Origin: a virus
Strand: one strand, 5' to 3'
IMG/VR virus record: IMGVR_UViG_3300011737_000031
Coordinates: 1-26,231 of that record
Length of the DNA: 26,231 nt
Of the stretch, positions 3,052 through 16,246 are shown piece after piece. Below the pieces are notes generated by a model. That model had not been told where the DNA came from, searched no databases, and worked only from the letters and a program-made list of their open reading frames with translations. The translations under genes were made by a program, and so were the position numbers. Each line of letters opens with the position of its first letter. Position 1 is the first letter of the stretch.

Positions 3052-3185
3052 TGCAATGTAAGAATCTCGAATGTAATAAGGATGCTAACCCATGGGGATA
3101 CTTTTGCTCCATAGAATGCGAAGTAGAACATACCGAACATCTAAATAGTTTGAACAACGATTCAAATGTTATCAAGGCTGAATAG
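3051..3185 (+). CDS. Small Cys-containing protein (44 aa, MQCKNLECNKDANPWGYFCSIECEV...), possible zinc-binding
   Basis: Its ATG overlaps the previous stop (TGATG). It has four Cys in a CX4C...CX3C pattern. It is below the track length cutoff. Confidence 0.4.
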   Translation: MQCKNLECNKDANPWGYFCSIECEVEHTEHLNSLNNDSNVIKAE

Positions 3186-5474: not shown

Positions 5475-6218
5475 ATGTCAAATCCAACTCGAATCGTAAC
5501 AGGTGAAGCAAGATTAAGCTATGTAAATCTATTAACTCCAAGAGCAAGACAAGATGGTGGAGAAGCAAAATACAGCGTAACAATCCTTGTACCAAAATCG
5601 GATGTACAGACGAAACAACGTATCGATGCTGCCATCGATGCAGCAAAACAAATTGGTAAAGATAAAAAATGGAACGGTGTGATTCCTCCGATGGTTGCCC
5701 TTCCTGTCTATGACGGTGACGGGGTAAAACCTTCTGACGGTATGCCATTTGGTCCAGAGTGTAAAGGTCACTGGGTATTCAGTGCATCATCTAAGGCTGA
5801 TCAACCACCTAAAATTGTGGATGCTAACCTTAATCCAATCGTAGATCCAACAGAAGTATATAGCGGAATGTACGGCCGCGTAGCTGTTAACTTTGCACCA
5901 TATGCAGCACAAGGGAAAAAAGGTATCGGTTGCTATCTATCTACTAATGTGCAAAAAACACGTGACGGTGAGCCGTTAGGTGCGGCAGCTCCAGCTGCAG
6001 CTGATGATTTCGGTGGAGGAGCTCCACAGCAACCAGCATACCAACAACCGCAATACCAACAGCCACAGTATCAACAACCGGAACCAAATATTCAAATGCC
6101 TTATGGTATGCAAGGACAACCGCAACAGCCTGCACCTGGTCAATACCAACAACCACAAATTGACCCGATTACTGGACAACCAATTAACAACGGTAACGGT
6201 GGCGTGTACGGAATATGA
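5475..6218 (+). CDS. DUF2815-family ssDNA-binding-like protein with a Q/P-rich C-terminal tail
   Basis: The family-typical N-terminus MSNPTRIVTGEARLSYVNLL starts at ATG 5475, 8 nt after AAAGGAG. The track ORF's extra 30 aa (from 5385) have no such support. The protein follows the DUF2800 gene, as is usual for this module. Confidence 0.8.
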   Translation: MSNPTRIVTGEARLSYVNLLTPRARQDGGEAKYSVTILVPKSDVQTKQRIDAAIDAAKQIGKDKKWNGVIPPMVALPVYDGDGVKPSDGMPFGPECKGHWVFSASSKADQPPKIVDANLNPIVDPTEVYSGMYGRVAVNFAPYAAQGKKGIGCYLSTNVQKTRDGEPLGAAAPAAADDFGGGAPQQPAYQQPQYQQPQYQQPEPNIQMPYGMQGQPQQPAPGQYQQPQIDPITGQPINNGNGGVYGI

Positions 6219-8197
6219 TTAGAAGTTTAAACATCGATATTGAGACTTATTCATCGGTGGATATTAAGAAGTCTGGGCTGTACAAATACGTACAGTCTCC
6301 GGACTTTCAGATACTACTTTTCGCTTATTCCGTTAATGGCCAACCGACAAAGATTGTGGATTTGGCTACAGGGGAGCGCATTCCTTTTGAGATTCATCAA
6401 GCTTTAATGGATCCAATGGTAACAAAGCACGCATATAATGCTGCTTTTGAGTGGTATTGTCTTTCCAAGTTTTTGAGATTACCTGTTCCAGCTAATTGGT
6501 TGAAAGAATGGCGCTGTACGATGTTTCACGGTTTGTATTGCGGATTTACTGCAGGTCTTGGTCCAACAGCAAAAGCTATGGGGCTTCCACAAGATAAACG
6601 CAAAATGAGTGTTGGTACTTCTTTAATTAAATTATTTTGTACTCCTACGAAGCCATCTAAGAAGAATGGAAATCGTACAAGAACCCTGCCACACCACGAG
6701 CCAGAAAAGTGGGAACTATTTAAAGATTATTGTGTTCAGGACGTTGAGGTAGAAAAGGAAATCGAAAGTAGATTATCCAGTTTTCCTATACCTGCGGCTG
6801 AACAAAAGCTTTGGGAATTAGATCAACAGATTAACGCTTTTGGTGTTCGTGTAGATCAACAGCTAATCGATGGAGCTTTGTATATAGATGATTTAGCAAC
6901 TGCAACGCTTACGGAAGAAGCTATAAAAATTACTGGGTTAGCTAATCCAAATAGTTCTCAACAGCTGACAAAATGGCTAGCTGATAAAGGATTAGAAGTA
7001 GAGAATTTGCAGAAGGATACTGTTACTAACCTCCTTGATTCTACAGAAGGAGAAGTCAAAAGAATGCTAGAGATTCGCCAGGAGCTTTCTAAAACGAGTA
7101 CAAAAAAATATGTGGCCATGGAATCAGCAGTTTGCGATGACGGGAGGGTACGAGGTTTACTGCAGTTTTACGGAGCTAATAGAACCGGCAGATGGGCGGG
7201 CAGATTGGTTCAAGTGCAGAACCTTCCGCGTAACTATCTCGAGACTCTAGGGCACGCCAGAGATTGTGTTAAAGAGAAGAAAATAGATGCTTTGAAATTT
7301 GTTTATGGGAATATCCCTAATACTCTTTCTGAATTAATTAGGACTGCGTTTATACCGAGCGAGGGAAACGTTCTATTGATATCTGACTTCTCTGCAATTG
7401 AAGCAAGGGTTATAGCATGGCTAGCTGGAGAACAGTGGCGGTTAGACGTATTTAATACGCACGGAAAAATATACGAGGCTTCGGCTTCTCAAATGTTTGG
7501 AGTGCCTTTAGAAAGAATAAAGAAAGGAAATCCTGAATACGATCTTCGCCAAAGAGGAAAAGTCGCTGAACTGGCATTAGGATATCAGGGCGGTCCATTT
7601 GCTCTCGAGTCTATGGATAGAGATAAGGTTTTAAATCCCTCTGAGTTACCGGATATCGTAAGACGCTGGAGATCCTCCAGTAAGAGAATTGTGGACTTAT
7701 GGTATTCACTAGAGAATGCAGCACTTTCTGTTATGAGAACAGGGCAACCTGCAGGTGTTCGGGGATTAATTTTAGCTCGAGAGAGTGATATTCGAAATGG
7801 GTTAGACTTTTTAACTATTACTCTCCCAAGTGGACGAAAGCTATTTTATGTTAAGCCGTTTCTATCAGAAAATGATTTTGGGAAGGAAGCGCTTCATTAC
7901 TTTGGTCTTAATCAGACTACAAAGAAATGGGAGAAACAATCCACTTACGGCGGTAAATTAGTCGAGAACTGTGTACAAGCAATTGCTCGAGACTGCTTAG
8001 CAGTAACACTGAAACGATTAGCTGTATTGGGATATCAAACTGTCATGCACATTCATGATGAAGTGGTGCTAGACGTGCCAAATAATCAAGCAGACTTGGA
8101 TATGGTCGCTTCAATAATGGGGACTCCAATTGGATGGGCTCCTGGATTACCGCTAACTGCAGATGGTTTTCTATCTGAATATTACAAAAAAGATTGA
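6215..8197 (+). CDS. Family A DNA polymerase with an N-terminal 3'-5' exonuclease domain
   Basis: Exo I DIETYS; motif A LISDFSAIEARV; motif B RQRGKVAELALGYQGG; motif C HIHDEVV. Its ATG overlaps the upstream stop (ATGA). Confidence 0.93.
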   Translation: MIRSLNIDIETYSSVDIKKSGLYKYVQSPDFQILLFAYSVNGQPTKIVDLATGERIPFEIHQALMDPMVTKHAYNAAFEWYCLSKFLRLPVPANWLKEWRCTMFHGLYCGFTAGLGPTAKAMGLPQDKRKMSVGTSLIKLFCTPTKPSKKNGNRTRTLPHHEPEKWELFKDYCVQDVEVEKEIESRLSSFPIPAAEQKLWELDQQINAFGVRVDQQLIDGALYIDDLATATLTEEAIKITGLANPNSSQQLTKWLADKGLEVENLQKDTVTNLLDSTEGEVKRMLEIRQELSKTSTKKYVAMESAVCDDGRVRGLLQFYGANRTGRWAGRLVQVQNLPRNYLETLGHARDCVKEKKIDALKFVYGNIPNTLSELIRTAFIPSEGNVLLISDFSAIEARVIAWLAGEQWRLDVFNTHGKIYEASASQMFGVPLERIKKGNPEYDLRQRGKVAELALGYQGGPFALESMDRDKVLNPSELPDIVRRWRSSSKRIVDLWYSLENAALSVMRTGQPAGVRGLILARESDIRNGLDFLTITLPSGRKLFYVKPFLSENDFGKEALHYFGLNQTTKKWEKQSTYGGKLVENCVQAIARDCLAVTLKRLAVLGYQTVMHIHDEVVLDVPNNQADLDMVASIMGTPIGWAPGLPLTADGFLSEYYKKD

Positions 8198-9731: not shown

Positions 9732-10016
9732 ATGGGCGATGAAACAAAATTAAAATGGGCTGACAGTTTAAGAGTTGGTATTTTACTAGACATCGATGAC
9801 GAACGTAATCGTCAGAACCTTAAGTGGGGCAGACAACGCCACGATAATGGTAAATGGCTTCAAATATTGGTGGAGGAAGTGGGAGAAGTTGCCCAAGCTA
9901 TGCAAAAAGAAAACGGCTGGGGGAAGGATACCGATGCTTCCGATTTATATACAGAATTGATTCACGTTGCAGCTGTTGCAGTGTCTATTGCAGAGCAGGT
10001 AAGGGAGGAAAAGTAG
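9732..10016 (+). CDS. MazG-like nucleoside triphosphate pyrophosphohydrolase (small all-alpha type)
   Basis: ERNRQNLKWG...WLQILVEEVGEVAQA...LYTELIHVAAVAV matches the MazG EExxE helix pattern. ATG at 9732 lies 8 nt after AAAGGAG. The track's N-terminal extension (9615) overlaps the previous ORF. Confidence 0.6.
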   Translation: MGDETKLKWADSLRVGILLDIDDERNRQNLKWGRQRHDNGKWLQILVEEVGEVAQAMQKENGWGKDTDASDLYTELIHVAAVAVSIAEQVREEK

Positions 10017-10298
10017 TTGGACCAGTTAAAGATTGGCGATTGGGTAAAAGTTAAAGCGATTTTGGGATTGTACTTTTATGGATATGTTACGAGATTATGT
10101 GGAACTTTAGTAGACGTGAAGATTACTAAAGGACTCACATCTAAACTTACTGTCGAACGGAATAAAGTGCAGCCTTGGATAACAGAAGTACAGTCTGTTG
10201 ATTATGATAACTTGATTGATCTTGCCCTTTCAACTCATGATGAAGAATGGTTTAGGGAGCTTACCAGGCAAAAAGAATTATTGGTAAAGGAGGGATAA
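10017..10298 (+). CDS. Hypothetical protein (93 aa)
   Basis: TTG start directly after the upstream stop, preceded by GGGAGGAA. No domain recognised. Confidence 0.6.
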   Translation: MDQLKIGDWVKVKAILGLYFYGYVTRLCGTLVDVKITKGLTSKLTVERNKVQPWITEVQSVDYDNLIDLALSTHDEEWFRELTRQKELLVKEG

Positions 10299-10301
10299 AG
10301 G

Positions 10302-11276
10302 TTGAAGCCGTTAGAGAAGTTGGGGCAGTTACCAGGAATGATAGATGTAAAAAAGCAAGTAGAACAAATAATTCAGTTTAATAGAATTTCTAAATTGCGT
10401 GCAAGTCAAGGTCTTAAAACAGAGAGTCAATCCCTGCACTTAATATTTACCGGCAATCCCGGTACTGGGAAAACAACTGCAGCACGTTTGATTGGCGAGG
10501 CATTTGCTTCCTTAGGGATTCTTAAATCGAATCCGGATCGAAACGATAATTCTTTTAACAATCAAAATAATAATCAGAAGCAAAGACAAAAGAAAGCTCG
10601 TATTCCTTTTGTAGAGATTCATCATGCCGATGTTACCAGTAAATTCGTAGGCGCTGCTGAAAAAACGATATTAGAGAAATTCAAACAGGCTCGTGGAGGA
10701 GTACTTTTTATCGATGAAGCTTATGCTTTTATAGCCGGAGAAACAGAACACAAATCAGGTGAAAAGGTTATTGCAGCCATTGTCCAACAGATGGAAGATA
10801 TGCGCGAAGAAGTAATGGTAATTGCTGCAGGATACGCGAATGAAATGGATAATTTCTTAGATTCTAATCCTGGGTTACGGTCTCGCTTCTCTAATTCTGT
10901 CGCTTTTCCTGATTATTCCGTCCCTGACATGGTTGTGATCGCTCAAAAGATGTTAGATGATAGAGACTATTTTGCTGATAATGATTACCTTAGAGAATTG
11001 GCTAACCGGTTATGGGTGGAAAAAGATAAAAAGGGTTTTGGTAATGCGCGTACAGTAAGGAATATCGTAGAGCAATCTATCCGGATGCAATCGGCAAGGG
11101 TTGCTTATATGGATAACCCTTCTCGTCAAGATTTAATGTTGCTAACAGTATTTGATATAGAAAAAGCTAATGATAAAGCCCTAACTGAAAAAGAAATACT
11201 GTTGAAGTCTTTATCCCAGATACAAGGGAGACTTCTTGAAATTGATTTAATGGAACTATTATCTAAAAGTGGATGA
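10302..11276 (+). CDS. AAA+ ATPase of the SpoVK/CbbX subfamily
   Basis: Walker A GNPGTGKTT and Walker B VLFIDEAY. Subfamily signature VIAAGYANEMDNFLDSNPGLRSRFSNSVAFPDYS. TTG start lies 7 nt after AAAGGAGGG. An N/Q-rich insertion lies between Walker A and B (approx. nt 10524-10601). Confidence 0.87.
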   Translation: MKPLEKLGQLPGMIDVKKQVEQIIQFNRISKLRASQGLKTESQSLHLIFTGNPGTGKTTAARLIGEAFASLGILKSNPDRNDNSFNNQNNNQKQRQKKARIPFVEIHHADVTSKFVGAAEKTILEKFKQARGGVLFIDEAYAFIAGETEHKSGEKVIAAIVQQMEDMREEVMVIAAGYANEMDNFLDSNPGLRSRFSNSVAFPDYSVPDMVVIAQKMLDDRDYFADNDYLRELANRLWVEKDKKGFGNARTVRNIVEQSIRMQSARVAYMDNPSRQDLMLLTVFDIEKANDKALTEKEILLKSLSQIQGRLLEIDLMELLSKSG

Positions 11277-11309: not shown

Positions 11310-13733
11310 ATGATTTATGACAGACAGTTAACGATATCAGCTGCAGGAAGCAGAAAGGCAACCGAGTGGCCATCGCAAACATTATATTGGTCCGAGCTAG
11401 TAGATCGGTTACGTACGGCTGTTAGGGGAACAGAAACCCTAGCCGAATATATGAAGCTCCCTAAGTCTCGTCAAGATGAGCTAAAGGACGTTGGTGGATT
11501 TGTAGCCGGTACCTTAGCAAACAACCGAAGAAAGGCTTCCAATGTAACAGGGAGAGATATCATAACGCTCGACTTGGATAATATTCCTGCAGGTGGAACA
11601 GCAGACGTGCTACGTCGTCTCGAGGCATTAGGGTGCGCCTATGCAACTTACTCCACCAGGAAGCATGAGGAGGGCAAGCCACGTTTACGTGTGCTTGCTC
11701 CTTTAAATCGAACAGCTTCTGCAGATGAGTACGAGCCATTAGCTAGAAAACTATCTTCTATTATTGGTATGAGCTTTGCGGATCCTACCACGTTTGAAGC
11801 TTCTCGGTTGATGTATTGGCCTAGTTGTTCTTCCGATAGTCAGTATGTGTTCCAATATGGTGATAAGCCTTTCCTAGATGCTGATGGTCTATTAAGCCTT
11901 TATAACGATTGGAGAGATATTCAAGAGTGGCCAGAAGTACCTGGAGCTAGTCAATCGCACGTACGAATGGCAGCAAAACAAGGAAACCCTACAGAAAAGC
12001 GCGGTGTTGTTGGAGCTTTCTGCAGACAATACGATATCCACACAGCCATCGAAACTTTTTTACCCGGTGTTTATACGCCAACAGATGACGGTAGCGAGCG
12101 ATATACCTTTATAGGAGGTTCGACGGTTGGTGGAGCTGTTATTTATGATGATGGGTTATTTCTTTACTCTCACCATGCGACAGATCCCTGCAGTGGCCGA
12201 TTAGTAAATGCGTTTGACCTAGTGCGATTGCACAAATACGGAGAATTAGACGATGAAGCAAAGCCGGATACTCCGGTAAACAAATTGCCATCATTTACAA
12301 CAATGGCTGCTTTTGCATTAAATGATGCTGGTGTAGCAGCTATTTTAAACCAGGAACGATATGAAAGAGCTGTAGCCGATTTTGGAGACTCACCGGTGGG
12401 ACAACCAGGATCCCCGGAAGGTGGGGACGATTTAAATTGGATTCAAAAATTAAAAATTAGTCCTTCAACTGGTACCCCTTTAAAGTCTATCGAAAACGCA
12501 TTGGTTGCATTAGAACATGATCCGCGTTTAAAAGGTCGGATTAAGATGGACTCCTTTGCAGATTCTTTAATGGGAGTTGGGCCTTTACCGTGGGTGCCGA
12601 GAGACAAGGAAGAAGTGTTCAGATGGACAGACACAGACGATGCAGGATTGCGGAGTTACCTAGAAAAAATTCTTAATTTCCGCGTGAAAGATATCGTAAA
12701 TGACGCGCTCATTTTGTGTGCTGCAGCTAATCAATTCAATCCAGTTGTGGACTATCTTAATGCGTTACAGTGGGACGGAGTGAAAAGGCTAGATACTTTA
12801 TTTATCGAGTACTTAGGTGCTGCAGATACTCCTTACACAAGAGCAGTGACGAGAAAATCGTTTACGGCAGCCGTTGCAAGAGCGATGAGTCCAGGCATTA
12901 AATACGATACAATGCCGGTTATTACCGGTCCTCAAGGTTTCGGAAAAACAACGCTTATTCAGAAGATGGGTAAGGCTTGGTTTACGAATAGCATTGAGAG
13001 TTTCGAAGGAAAAGAAGCAGCTGAACTGTTACAAGGCGTATGGCTGGTTGAGATCGGTGAAATGAGTGCCTATAACAAGTCAGATGTACAGACTATTAAA
13101 GGGTTCCTCAGTAGAACAGAAGACCAGTATCGTGCTGCCTACGCACGTAAAACAGAGAAGCATCCGAGACGATGTGTATTTTTTGGTACAAGTAATAGAA
13201 GTGATTATTTAAGAGATCCGACAGGTGGTAGACGTTTTTGGCCAATCGATGTTGGTATCCAGCAACCTACTAAACTAGTATTTCGGGATTTAGATGCAGA
13301 AGTGGAGCAGTTATGGGCGGAAGCCGTGATGCATTGGCGATTGGGCGAGTCCCTTTTCTTAACTGGGGAATTGGCAGAAGAAGCAAGACGGCAACAGGAA
13401 GGCCACGCAGAGCAGGATCCACGTGAGAGTCTTATTCGTGATTTTGTGGAAAGAAAAGTACCTGCAGATTGGCAGAAGAAAGATATTGCAACTAGAAGAT
13501 TGTACTGGTCCGGAGAGTTTGGAAGGGCAGAAACAGATACAGAAGAAAGGGATCGTATTTGTGCTGCCGAGGTTTGGGTGGAATGTCTAGGAGGCGATAT
13601 CCGGAATATGAGAAGGATGGATACAATCGCCATCAATGATGTTTTAGAACAAATTGAGGGATGGAAAAAGCAGAAGAACCCACATCGGTACGGTCCCTAT
13701 GGGAAGGTAAAAGGCGGATATATAAGGGTTTAG
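11310..13733 (+). CDS. Bifunctional primase-polymerase / VirE-family (P4-like) helicase
   Basis: 807 aa. N-terminal prim-pol-like region with ITLDLDN. C-terminal VirE-type P-loop ITGPQGFGKTT followed by WLVEIGE. This is the usual partner of the DUF2800/DUF2815/PolA module. Confidence 0.88.
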   Translation: MIYDRQLTISAAGSRKATEWPSQTLYWSELVDRLRTAVRGTETLAEYMKLPKSRQDELKDVGGFVAGTLANNRRKASNVTGRDIITLDLDNIPAGGTADVLRRLEALGCAYATYSTRKHEEGKPRLRVLAPLNRTASADEYEPLARKLSSIIGMSFADPTTFEASRLMYWPSCSSDSQYVFQYGDKPFLDADGLLSLYNDWRDIQEWPEVPGASQSHVRMAAKQGNPTEKRGVVGAFCRQYDIHTAIETFLPGVYTPTDDGSERYTFIGGSTVGGAVIYDDGLFLYSHHATDPCSGRLVNAFDLVRLHKYGELDDEAKPDTPVNKLPSFTTMAAFALNDAGVAAILNQERYERAVADFGDSPVGQPGSPEGGDDLNWIQKLKISPSTGTPLKSIENALVALEHDPRLKGRIKMDSFADSLMGVGPLPWVPRDKEEVFRWTDTDDAGLRSYLEKILNFRVKDIVNDALILCAAANQFNPVVDYLNALQWDGVKRLDTLFIEYLGAADTPYTRAVTRKSFTAAVARAMSPGIKYDTMPVITGPQGFGKTTLIQKMGKAWFTNSIESFEGKEAAELLQGVWLVEIGEMSAYNKSDVQTIKGFLSRTEDQYRAAYARKTEKHPRRCVFFGTSNRSDYLRDPTGGRRFWPIDVGIQQPTKLVFRDLDAEVEQLWAEAVMHWRLGESLFLTGELAEEARRQQEGHAEQDPRESLIRDFVERKVPADWQKKDIATRRLYWSGEFGRAETDTEERDRICAAEVWVECLGGDIRNMRRMDTIAINDVLEQIEGWKKQKNPHRYGPYGKVKGGYIRV

Positions 13734-15700: not shown

Positions 15701-16246
15701 ATGAATACGAATGGGAAAAGCAATGAGGAATTGATGGACCACATTATCAAAGTTGCTTCTGAAACAGCCATTGACTATTACAAGAAGCGAGAAAAAGAAG
15801 AACGAAAAAAACGCGTAGATCGTCGTTTGCGAAATACACGGTTATTGTTAGAGAACTATAAAAATTTTAAAATACATTGTACAGAAAATGCTGTAAAGAT
15901 TGATCACCTATTGGATCCTGACGATTTCGAATTTCTTGAATATGGAGACCTGGTGATTGAATCAATTGTCAAAAGTAAAAAACGGACAATTTCTATGGTA
16001 GCATACTTAGACCACATGCTGGAAGTTTATCGAGCTATAGCAGATTCTTCCAACAAAAAAGAAGAGATAAGAAAGTATCATACTGTTCTTAAATATTATA
16101 TTTTGGACCCCAGAGTGGAAATTGAAGAGATAGCAAATGTCCACGGAGTAAGTGTAAAAACAGTTAAACGTGATTTAGACAATGCCGTTAAATCCATTGC
16201 TGCCTTGATTTTTGGAGTAGATAGTGTCAGATTCATAGATTATTAA
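15701..16246 (+). CDS. Late-gene transcriptional regulator, ArpU/RinA-like with a sigma-70 region-4-like C-terminal HTH
   Basis: It is the last gene before the terminase genes. The N-terminal RLLLENYKNFK motif resembles ArpU-family proteins. The C-terminal IEEIANVHGVSVKTVKRDLDNAVKSIAALIFG looks like sigma region 4.2. Confidence 0.65.
   Translation: MNTNGKSNEELMDHIIKVASETAIDYYKKREKEERKKRVDRRLRNTRLLLENYKNFKIHCTENAVKIDHLLDPDDFEFLEYGDLVIESIVKSKKRTISMVAYLDHMLEVYRAIADSSNKKEEIRKYHTVLKYYILDPRVEIEEIANVHGVSVKTVKRDLDNAVKSIAALIFGVDSVRFIDY

Follow-up and report, generated by a model that had tools for sequence, protein, structure and literature searches.

A phage-specific SpoVK-like AAA+ ATPase in the early replication region of a Bacillales prophage

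The open reading frame at 10302..11276 (+) is confirmed and encodes a 324-aa AAA+ ATPase which, on sequence grounds, is a member of a phage- and prophage-specific subfamily and not a SpoVK orthologue. The gene belongs to the accessory early genes of a temperate prophage of siphovirus type, whose host is a member of the Bacillales. Our best joint explanation, held with moderate confidence, is that the protein is an accessory early AAA+ remodeller whose client is probably linked to replication or to DNA, and that the N/Q-rich insert in one of its loops is neutral or modulatory. The window, by which we mean the whole stretch of 26,231 nucleotides that was analysed, is a prophage: it carries serine recombinase, S24 repressor, terminase, portal, capsid and tail genes and comes from an IMG/VR provirus record. 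The phage origin assumed in an earlier note, which was made from the DNA sequence alone, is thus borne out.

Gene, fold and family of the ATPase

The gene has a TTG start codon, with a ribosome-binding site placed closely upstream.

10302..11276 (+): SpoVK-like AAA+ ATPase gene of the phage-specific clade, identified from the ORF, Pfam, NCBIfam, AF2, Foldseek and dN/dS
10288..10295 (+): ribosome-binding site AAGGAGGG, read from the sequence, within the 3' end of the upstream ORF and 6 nt before the TTG

A TAA stop at 10296-10298 closes the 93-aa ORF upstream, leaving a spacer of 3 nt to the ATPase gene. The ATPase is under strong purifying selection, with a dN/dS of 0.07-0.10 against three relatives, and it has hundreds of homologues; the ORF is therefore a real gene.

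Pfam assigns the product to AAA (PF00004, 1.2e-18) and AAA_lid_6 (PF17866, 6.8e-16). Among the NCBIfam models SpoVK scores 234.2 bits, CbbX 176.8 and EccA 175.4, and in all three cases the insert divides the match in two. Neither the Pfam nor the NCBIfam matches at E <= 0.01 include a family of the DnaC/IstB type. A PDB sequence search with the ATPase returns CbbX (1e-40) and EccA1 (4.9e-32). The AF2 model, with a pLDDT of 88.7, has CbbX as its top Foldseek match (E about 1e-19 to 1e-20), then AFG2, FtsH, ClpX and p97, and classical-clade remodellers make up all of the best 50 matches listed. These searches, together with the tree described below, agree with the earlier note in assigning the protein to the SpoVK/CbbX/EccA group and not to DnaC/DnaI. 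The helicase-loader reading is ruled out by the family, by the fold and by the absence of the gene from 377 of 378 VapE-bearing records.

The motifs quoted in the earlier note, GNPGTGKTT, VLFIDEAY and AAGY..EM..F...NPGLRSRF.....FPDYS, are all present, apart from the spacing between SRF and the following F, which is five residues and not three. The conserved elements lie as follows.

10452..10478 (+): Walker A / P-loop GNPGTGKTT (G51-T59), assigned from sequence; K57 invariant in 111 clade members
10644..10652 (+): pore-loop-1 F115-V116-G117; G117 invariant, V116 in 105/111, position 115 H, L, Y or F across the clade
10701..10718 (+): Walker B VLFIDE (D138, E139); D138 and E139 invariant in 111 sequences
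10830..10886 (+): GY sensor-1 (G177-Y178) to NPGLRSR (N189 and Arg fingers R193 and R195); G177, Y178, N189 and R195 invariant
11040..11063 (+): sensor-2 region GNARTVRN (R250, R253), in AAA_lid_6; R253 invariant, R250 in 110/111
11187..11270 (+): C-terminal amphipathic helix, residues 296-323, a helix in the AF2 model; clade-specific and past the end of the SpoVK and CbbX models

The first Arg finger, R193, is retained in 83 of the 111 clade members. Judged by these motifs, the ATPase should be catalytically intact. The match to the SpoVK model TIGR02881 stops at residue 285, and the C-terminal helix beyond it keeps the pattern EK..L...Q.RL.E.E..E across the clade. At the other end of the protein, the AF2 model has helices at residues 2-9 and 14-35 before the strand at 47-51, with an invariant apex G12-M13, a predicted bihelical hairpin ahead of Walker A. 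Such a hairpin, a GY at sensor 1, an Asn four residues before the first Arg finger and a sensor-2 Arg define the SpoVK-EccA-CbbX higher-order clade (PMC11513918). The AAA module with its lid, the GY, the Asn and Arg finger and the sensor-2 Arg all point to membership of the window protein in this clade.

Relation to SpoVK and to sporulation

Within this clade the ATPase stands apart from SpoVK. The equivalog cut-off of TIGR02881 is 422.95 bits; the ATPase stays at 234.2, whereas Bacillaceae SpoVKs tested in the same way reach 424-460. In a quick, midpoint-rooted tree the phage proteins form a clade with SH-aLRT support of 100 when L010 is included (stem length 1.2) and of 98 for the 28 clade rows, and they fall outside the starred SpoVK group (support 96). 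The outgroups were cellular SpoVK-type genes of 33-40% identity, taken from among the matches listed from a genome-contig scan. The ATPase is therefore placed in a separate phage clade. Compared with true SpoVK, the identity is 36% over the AAA module and lid, and residue 1 of the ATPase aligns with residue 44 of bona fide SpoVK. In B. subtilis, SpoVK depends on its N-terminal domain (residues 2-41) both for MurG binding and for its own accumulation (PMC11513918). The cut-off, the tree and the absent N-terminal domain rule out a captured host spoVK gene.

The earlier note proposed that a phage copy could manipulate host sporulation. We find this link not supported: the ATPase is not a SpoVK orthologue and is devoid of its N-terminal domain, so that only the family name connects it with sporulation. 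In its most developed form, the proposal would be that the protein mimics or antagonises host SpoVK, through mixed, poisoned hexamers or through MurG or coat-checkpoint targets, and thereby alters completion of the spore cortex. Poisoning of SpoVK is mechanistically possible, because dominant-negative SpoVK alleles lower sporulation 100- to 1000-fold (PMC11513918), and SpoVK is the nearest curated family by score. The clade is found in Heyndrickxia, Oceanobacillus, Cytobacillus, Bacillus, Brevibacillus, Paenibacillus, Cohnella and Fontibacillus. Every named source but one thus belongs to an endospore-forming Bacillales genus, the exception being P0008 from Ralstonia pickettii, possibly a contamination. 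The VapE module is common in phages of Staphylococcus, Streptococcus, Enterococcus and Listeria; in phages of non-sporulating Bacillota it is abundant without the ATPase. Some carriers also have sigma-factor-like genes (Emery gp94, L152). The host limits may nevertheless mirror the host range of the phage lineage, and a rough tally of cultured phages, one carrier in ~45 phages of spore-formers against none in ~135 others, is not significant. The bit score (234 vs 423), the separate long-stem clade, the 36% identity and the lack of a MurG-binding domain all argue against orthology. In addition, the gene is part of the early replication operon, has no separate promoter, and is not placed like a lysogenic-conversion gene. 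Taken together, we consider such manipulation of sporulation unlikely. The restriction to spore-forming hosts leaves room for a target specific to spore-formers. A more sweeping version, in which a subfamily without the N-terminal domain and confined to phages of endospore-forming Bacillales acts on the late sporulation or cell-envelope machinery of the host (for example SpoVK hexamers or MurG) and decides spore completion, appears to us quite unlikely.

Setting in the replication region and probable client

The ATPase gene lies in a variable interval bounded by two replication genes.

6215..8197 (+): family A DNA polymerase (PolA), left edge of the variable interval (PF00476; synteny)
9732..10016 (+): MazG-like small ORF in the same accessory stretch (weak MazG match; phrog_2831); it abuts the AAA gene in L139
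10017..10298 (+): 93-aa ORF with a C-terminal IDEAL domain (PF08858, E = 1.3e-5); a neighbour, not a conserved partner
11310..13733 (+): VapE/D5-type primase-helicase, right edge of the variable interval (PF05272, 3.4e-80; phrog_256)

Fourteen loci were compared, comprising that of Brevibacillus phage Emery (gp95) and prophages of Bacillus, Paenibacillus and Heyndrickxia type. The clade gene sits between PolA and VapE in 13 of them (the window, Emery, L004-L007, L009, L137-L139 and L152-L154). The exception is L008, where the ATPase comes before the whole module. The gap to VapE is 33 nt in the window, and the two genes overlap in Emery. A consensus scan finds no + strand promoter of at least 10/12 between 2132 and 16266; terminator-like matches on this strand are confined there to two weak ones, at 3174 and 14381. 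The gene is not set off from the replication genes by a consensus promoter or terminator; together with its position between PolA and VapE, this makes early lytic expression most likely. From these consensus scans, the ATPase would be made early in lytic growth together with the replication module. The VapE module occurs in 378 phage records, among which only Emery has the clade ATPase; absence from the other 377 makes it an accessory gene. The clade is present in one of 401 sampled genomes of the class, and this single carrier gives a 2x2 comparison with spore-forming hosts no statistical power.

The earlier note also suggested that the 93-aa protein encoded immediately upstream may be the adaptor or substrate of the ATPase. 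A phmmer search of all ORFs of 15 related loci recovers the IDEAL ORF only in L137 and L138 and in no other clade locus. L139, the closest relative, has a MazG-like gene in its place. As the neighbour is missing from the closest and from all distant relatives, an adaptor role is unsupported, and the IDEAL ORF is rejected as a conserved partner. The interval between PolA and VapE may itself be a mere accessory hotspot, in which MazG-like, IDEAL and small ORFs vary too.

Could the ATPase serve specifically to load or activate the VapE/D5-type primase-helicase encoded next to it, as a functional DnaC/DnaI analogue built on another AAA+ clade? Its gene immediately precedes VapE in the window, Emery, L004, L007 and L152, and lies within the replication module in 13 of the 14 loci. 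However, in L005, L006, L009, L153 and L154 there are 0.6-2 kb of other genes between the two, and in L008 the ATPase precedes the module. The ATPase is also missing from 377 of the 378 records, so that VapE does not need it, and both fold and motifs place the protein with the classical-clade remodellers and outside the initiator/loader clade. We therefore regard a loader function as improbable.

We give equally little weight to a role in conflict, either as an anti-defence factor dismantling a host immune complex or as an IetA-like ATPase of prophage defence or superinfection exclusion. Defence-system libraries yield only weak matches to IetA, DolB and TRIP13. The gene does lie in a variable early stretch with a MazG-like gene, and both PADLOC (IetA, 39 bits) and NCBIfam (IteA, 37 bits) give a weak match. 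These matches are partial, though, with 37-39 bits against a cut-off of 510 bits (NF042959); no IetS-type protease or effector is found nearby, and the gene belongs to an early lytic operon, whereas prophage defence genes are usually found next to the repressor or the integrase.

The remodeller that we favour would, by analogy with CbbX, SpoVK and EccA, probably form a hexamer and, driven by ATP hydrolysis, pull on a single dedicated client with its pore loop FVG. The analogy suggests an activating or disassembling role for the protein rather than degradation of the client. Threading by the pore loop is not certain, because its aromatic position, residue 115, is H, L, Y or F across the clade. 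The client would be a replication- or recombination-associated or DNA-bound protein, of the phage or of the host, which we favour over a sporulation protein. The longer clade members have an N-terminal domain which in other phages is fused to Sak4-like recombination ATPases or lies beside SSB and PolA; it is also found alone beside DUF2800, SSB and PolA, or fused to AAA_24 or DUF488. The domain has no match in Pfam, PHROGs or PDB sequence or fold searches, and its BFVD matches are uncharacterised phage proteins only. The window ATPase is a short form without this domain, which leaves the lid or the clade-specific C-terminal helix as the parts that would have to recognise the client; hmmsearch finds no separate ORF for the domain in the window. 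The fusion argument thus draws on a domain that the short form does not have. The position of the L008 ATPase outside the PolA-VapE interval also speaks against the preferred role. A search for the client in early lytic growth is a better aim than sporulation assays alone.

The N/Q-rich loop and comparison with known systems

The insert noticed earlier lies in a loop of the AAA module.

10548..10601 (+): 18-aa N/Q/K-rich insert NSFNNQNNNQKQRQKKAR (N83-R100) in the alpha1-beta2 loop; a 54-nt in-frame indel relative to L137 and L139

The earlier estimate of about 25 aa holds for the comparison with bona fide SpoVK, where the gap is 24 residues; the true indel against the nearest relatives is the 18 aa of N83-R100. 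That canonical members do not have it is confirmed by a fixed short loop in 98 of 111 other family members examined. Within the clade, the insert is common only to P0001, a 92%-identical relative in which it has 4 substitutions. P0002, which is the closest relative with 95% identity across the aligned residues, has no such insert; nor do P0003 and 107 further members of the clade, and none of them shows a change that would compensate for its absence. From this alignment, the insert is not a clade feature. In the AF2 model it has a pLDDT of about 50 and is predicted to be disordered, within a length-variable surface loop that the model places at the sheet edge, away from the ATP site. The structure prediction put forward earlier as a check thus locates the insert.

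The 26-residue loop S76-I101 contains 46% N+Q, compared to 9% elsewhere in the protein, and the stretch QKQRQKKAR comes after the N/Q-rich part. This composition could suit a functional element, for instance a nucleic-acid or membrane tether, or a prion-like or condensate segment that relocates the hexamer. The small number of substitutions in P0001 would fit such an element, as would the recurrence of expansions in the same loop: independent polar/basic ones of 15-18 aa in P0007, P0017 and P0037, and poly-Ser inserts in giant-virus homologues. Against it stand the predicted disorder, the many clade members that manage without the insert and without compensation, and the DNA itself, A-rich at 54% against a genomic GC content of 39%, a composition typical of a slippage-type, low-complexity gain. 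A dedicated function of the insert is in our view as improbable as the loader function. Most likely, a loop of variable length has recently expanded here into a disordered low-complexity segment that is neutral or only modulatory, and the insert is not the feature to chase.

Phages have already been annotated with SpoVK-like genes of this kind, and in the papers examined such ATPases of phages are treated only at the level of annotation or phylogeny. The idea of a sporulation function has also been published, as annotation-level speculation: Emery gp95 is only listed as a possible host sporulation factor (PMC4909266). The Emery protein is of the same clade as the window ATPase (53% identity over 93% of the query), and the two phages have the same order of PolA, then AAA, VapE, VRR-NUC and SNF2. 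Unlike the window protein, gp95 has a short loop without the N/Q insert, and its gene follows a sigma-factor-like gene in place of the IDEAL ORF.

Among characterised ATPases, the red-type Rubisco activase CbbX (PDB 3SYL, 3SYK, 3ZUH) is the best match of solved structure, by sequence (1e-40) as well as by fold (E about 1e-20, TM 0.67-0.75), with a single AAA module and four-helix lid, a GY at sensor 1 and two Arg fingers in common. The window protein differs in its score of 177 bits against a 459-bit cut-off (TIGR02880), in having no Rubisco context, and in its 18-aa loop insert and extra C-terminal helix. SpoVK (TIGR02881), the sporulation chaperone that activates MurG (PMC11513918), gives the highest curated score, 234 bits, with 36% identity and all clade signatures in common. 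In contrast to SpoVK, the window protein falls below the cut-off and outside the SpoVK clade, does not have the ~40-residue N-terminal MurG domain, and has its gene among the early operon genes of a phage instead of in a sporulation regulon. SpoVK proper is expressed in the mother cell during sporulation and localises to the forespore. EccA1 (PDB 9LUR, TIGR03922), an AAA+ chaperone of type VII secretion, belongs to the same higher-order clade, with its AAA module matched at 4.9e-32, but the window protein has neither the TPR/beta-helix N-terminal domain nor an ESX context and scores 175 against a cut-off of 467 bits. The copies in Bacillales siphophages therefore appear as a conserved, selected subfamily of their own in the replication module, and not as captured spoVK. 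If the client proves to belong to the replisome, or to be an enzyme of sporulation or of the cell wall, this would be a new phage use of a narrow-client AAA+ chaperone.

The ATPase gene in the early region of a temperate phage

The window is genomic DNA of a temperate tailed phage and belongs to an IMG/VR provirus record of 31,380 bases; its early replication region encodes an intact, selected SpoVK-like AAA+ protein of a phage clade. The gene order and the features of the ATPase gene are as follows.

Features of the window (gene order from gene content; all listed coordinates on the plus strand)
First in the window: large serine recombinase; S24/LexA-type repressor (both minus strand)
2132: early rightward promoter, predicted by consensus scan
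Next after the repressor: DUF2800 PD-(D/E)XK nuclease, Enc34-type SSB, family A polymerase
After the family A polymerase: small-gene stretch of ~3 kb, the last gene being the ATPase
10288-10295: ribosome-binding site AAGGAGGG, six bases before the TTG start
10302..11276: ATPase ORF, a real ORF with start codon TTG
10548-10601: 18-aa insert N83-R100, NSFNNQNNNQKQRQKKAR, an in-frame indel relative to the closest relatives
After the ATPase: VapE/D5-type primase-helicase, VRR-NUC-like ORF, SNF2 helicase
After the SNF2 helicase: small HTH regulator
16266: late promoter, predicted by consensus scan
After the HTH regulator: terminase, SPP1-type portal, MuF, scaffold, capsid and tail genes

The homologue alignment shows conservation across residues 1-13, L4, L7, G12 and M13 being invariant, and the start is therefore correctly placed. 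The dN/dS values of 0.07-0.10 against three relatives (dS 0.22-0.55) reveal strong purifying selection on the gene. Between 2132 and 16266 the consensus scan found no plus-strand promoter-like site scoring at least 10/12, and the plus-strand terminator-like matches there (3174 and 14381) are weak. As no promoter or strong terminator interrupts this interval, we infer from the scans that the ATPase is part of a long early transcript. Following the SNF2 gene, a 181-aa ORF (15701-16246) stops a short way ahead of the late promoter; its SpoIIID-like HTH match is weak (E = 4.4e-4) and does not reach the cut-off. The ORF at this position in the related phage locus L152 contains sigma-70 region 4. 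The 181-aa ORF is probably the late-gene regulator. Some carriers also have a sigma-factor-like gene in the early region (L152:778-1854; gp94 of the Brevibacillus phage Emery, L001:4664-5881). The Emery gene is the immediate upstream neighbour of the ATPase, a position at which the window has none.

Three bases separate the ATPase start from the TAA of an upstream 93-aa ORF with a C-terminal IDEAL domain (PF08858, 1.3e-5). Translational coupling, as stated in the earlier note, is plausible. The adaptor or substrate role that it suggested for the 93-aa protein found no support, an IDEAL-like ORF being found, with unchanged 3-nt spacing, in loci L137 and L138 and in none of the remaining clade loci. 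The two ORFs share one frame across 10017-11276, with TAA and one codon (10296-10301) between them, a one-in-three coincidence; nothing points to read-through. Locus L139, which encodes the closest ATPase, lacks the IDEAL gene, and a MazG-like ORF abuts the ATPase at the same 3-nt-spacer junction. Comparison of L139:330-1535 with window 9732-11276 places the end of the MazG-like ORF at an RBS-like ...GGAGG... junction, which suggests gene gain or loss through exchange at short conserved RBS junctions.

The interval from PolA to VapE contains the ATPase gene in Emery, L004-L007, L009, L137-L139 and L152-L154 as well as in the window, directly after PolA in some loci and directly before VapE in others; in L008 the gene precedes the whole module. 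Homologous VapE (E <= 1e-50) occurs in 378 phage records, including 87 from Staphylococcus and 38 from Streptococcus. A search of phage records with the ATPase found 11, among which Emery alone has a clade member, and 1 of 401 sampled genomes of the class has one. The VapE module thus does not need the ATPase, whose gene is accessory and sits in an interval of variable content.

Family assignment and separation from SpoVK

The protein matches Pfam AAA (1.2e-18) and AAA_lid_6 (6.8e-16) and the NCBIfam SpoVK (234 bits), CbbX (177) and EccA (175) families; its NCBIfam matches include no DnaC/IstB/DnaA-type family. An AlphaFold2 model built from 111 homologues is confident (pLDDT 88.7, pTM 0.81). 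Its top PDB fold matches are CbbX chains (E ~1e-19 to 1e-20, TM 0.63-0.75), followed by AFG2, FtsH, ClpX, p97 and katanin, all classical-clade remodellers. The SpoVK-EccA-CbbX higher-order clade has been defined by a bihelical hairpin ahead of Walker A, a GY signature at sensor 1, an Asn that precedes the first Arg finger by four residues and retention of the sensor-2 arginine (PMC11513918). All four are present, which places the ATPase in this clade: a hairpin predicted in the model (helices 2-9 and 14-35), G177-Y178, N189 four residues before R193 (the second Arg finger being R195), and R250 and R253. They are invariant or nearly so in 111 clade members, except R193 (83/111). Domain matches, fold and clade features thus agree with the earlier assignment to SpoVK/CbbX/EccA rather than DnaC/DnaI. 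The motifs on which that assignment drew are present, with five residues, not three, between SRF and FPDYS.

We rejected the protein as a SpoVK orthologue on three grounds. Against TIGR02881, the NCBIfam SpoVK family, genome-derived Bacillaceae SpoVKs score 424-460 bits; its 234 bits are similar to the 272-285 bits of non-orthologous relatives from Streptomyces-type and Streptococcus genomes. In a 73-sequence tree (IQ-TREE, LG+C20, quick search, midpoint root), it forms one clade with 20 database homologues, Emery gp95 and six IMG/VR loci, outside the true SpoVK group (SH-aLRT is 98 for these 28 sequences and 100 when their sister L010 is included; stem 1.2 substitutions per site). Because the tree is midpoint-rooted and from a quick search, we claim separation from SpoVK and not a direction of transfer. 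Finally, residue 1 aligns with residue 44 of true SpoVK, so the short N-terminal domain with which B. subtilis SpoVK binds MurG, and which it needs in order to accumulate (PMC11513918), is missing from the protein. The ATPases of four "viral" IMG/VR contigs of 114-204 kb (L011, L012, L013 and L018) fall inside the true SpoVK group, and L011, the one scanned, scores 436 bits, above the cut-off; these are probably host chromosome taken into provirus calls.

The N/Q-rich insert

An insert of about 25 aa had been noted next to Walker A, and the gap relative to bona fide SpoVK is indeed 24 residues; the NCBIfam SpoVK, CbbX and EccA matches are each broken in two, with the unmatched stretch within residues 75 to 103. 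The structure prediction that the earlier note called for puts the insert in a loop between helix 57-70 and strand 103-106, the sole low-confidence stretch of the model (pLDDT ~50). Judged by AAA+ topology, this loop would lie on a sheet edge away from both the nucleotide-binding site and the pore loop. The 18-aa indel is common to the homologue P0001 (92% identical) only and is missing in P0002, whose aligned residues are 95% identical, and in P0003 (91%). Within the 111-member clade set, the K75-P102 loop has 26 residues in the window protein and P0001 only, 15-18 likewise polar and basic residues in P0007, P0017 and P0037, and 5-10 in 106 members; 98 of 111 more distant relatives have a short fixed loop. 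Giant-virus homologues (L024-L036, IMG/VR GVMAG contigs) contain poly-Ser inserts of 31-57 aa with a basic KFKK end in exactly this alpha1-beta2 loop, and L023, L030 and L037 have 21-residue loops there that are not poly-Ser. Viral members appear to have gained low-complexity sequence repeatedly in this loop. The insert DNA is 54% A in a genome of 39% GC. We read the insert as a low-complexity stretch that expanded recently in a loop tolerant of such gains, probably neutral or modulatory in effect. The idea of a special insert is unsupported, and a functional role is quite improbable.

Possible clients and comparison with known remodellers

Some relatives are longer, at ~460 aa: eight database homologues, plus the proteins of the three loci L152, L156 and L005 (L155 comes from the L005 contig and is counted with it). 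At the N-terminus they carry a domain of ~135 aa, marked by the motif SIYLKLDYGVCNSIRISDHxGK...KGFW.

Locations of the ~135-aa domain
L152:7001-7420, L155:4001-4420, L156:4001-4420: at the ATPase N-terminus
L157:743-1147, L171:3995-4399 and others: stand-alone ORF

More than 20 IMG/VR phage contigs have the stand-alone ORF, which in several cases adjoins DUF2800, SSB and PolA; fusions of the domain to DUF488 or to a Sak4-like (AAA_24) ATPase also occur. The domain has no match in Pfam, PHROG or PDB sequences; its AlphaFold2 model is confident (pLDDT 90.6), with no analogue in a PDB fold search and only uncharacterised phage proteins in BFVD. As N-terminal domains recruit the client in the SpoVK-EccA-CbbX clade (PMC11513918), the fusion pattern leans toward a client in DNA metabolism, indirectly for the window protein, since the short form lacks the domain.

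With modest confidence, we prefer a client related to replication or recombination. Action on host sporulation, suggested in the earlier note and previously raised for Emery gp95 at annotation level (PMC4909266), finds no support here, the score, tree position and missing N-terminal domain setting the protein apart from SpoVK itself. It keeps some weight because the named clade sources are all endospore-forming Bacillales genera, except one Ralstonia pickettii record (P0008), and phages of non-sporulating Bacillota commonly carry the replication module, although the restriction to Bacillales may simply mirror the host range of the phage lineage. A defence or anti-defence role, to which weak and partial IetA/IteA matches point, is a faint prospect.

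The ATPase is most likely expressed early in lytic growth and, by analogy with CbbX, SpoVK and EccA, probably forms a hexamer that remodels one dedicated client. Genes of this kind are already annotated in phages, further examples being gp596 of Phage G and gp38 of Stenotrophomonas phage DLP3. By sequence, the nearest solved structure is CbbX (3ZUH/3SYL, 1e-40), and EccA1 (9LUR, 4.9e-32) is also close.
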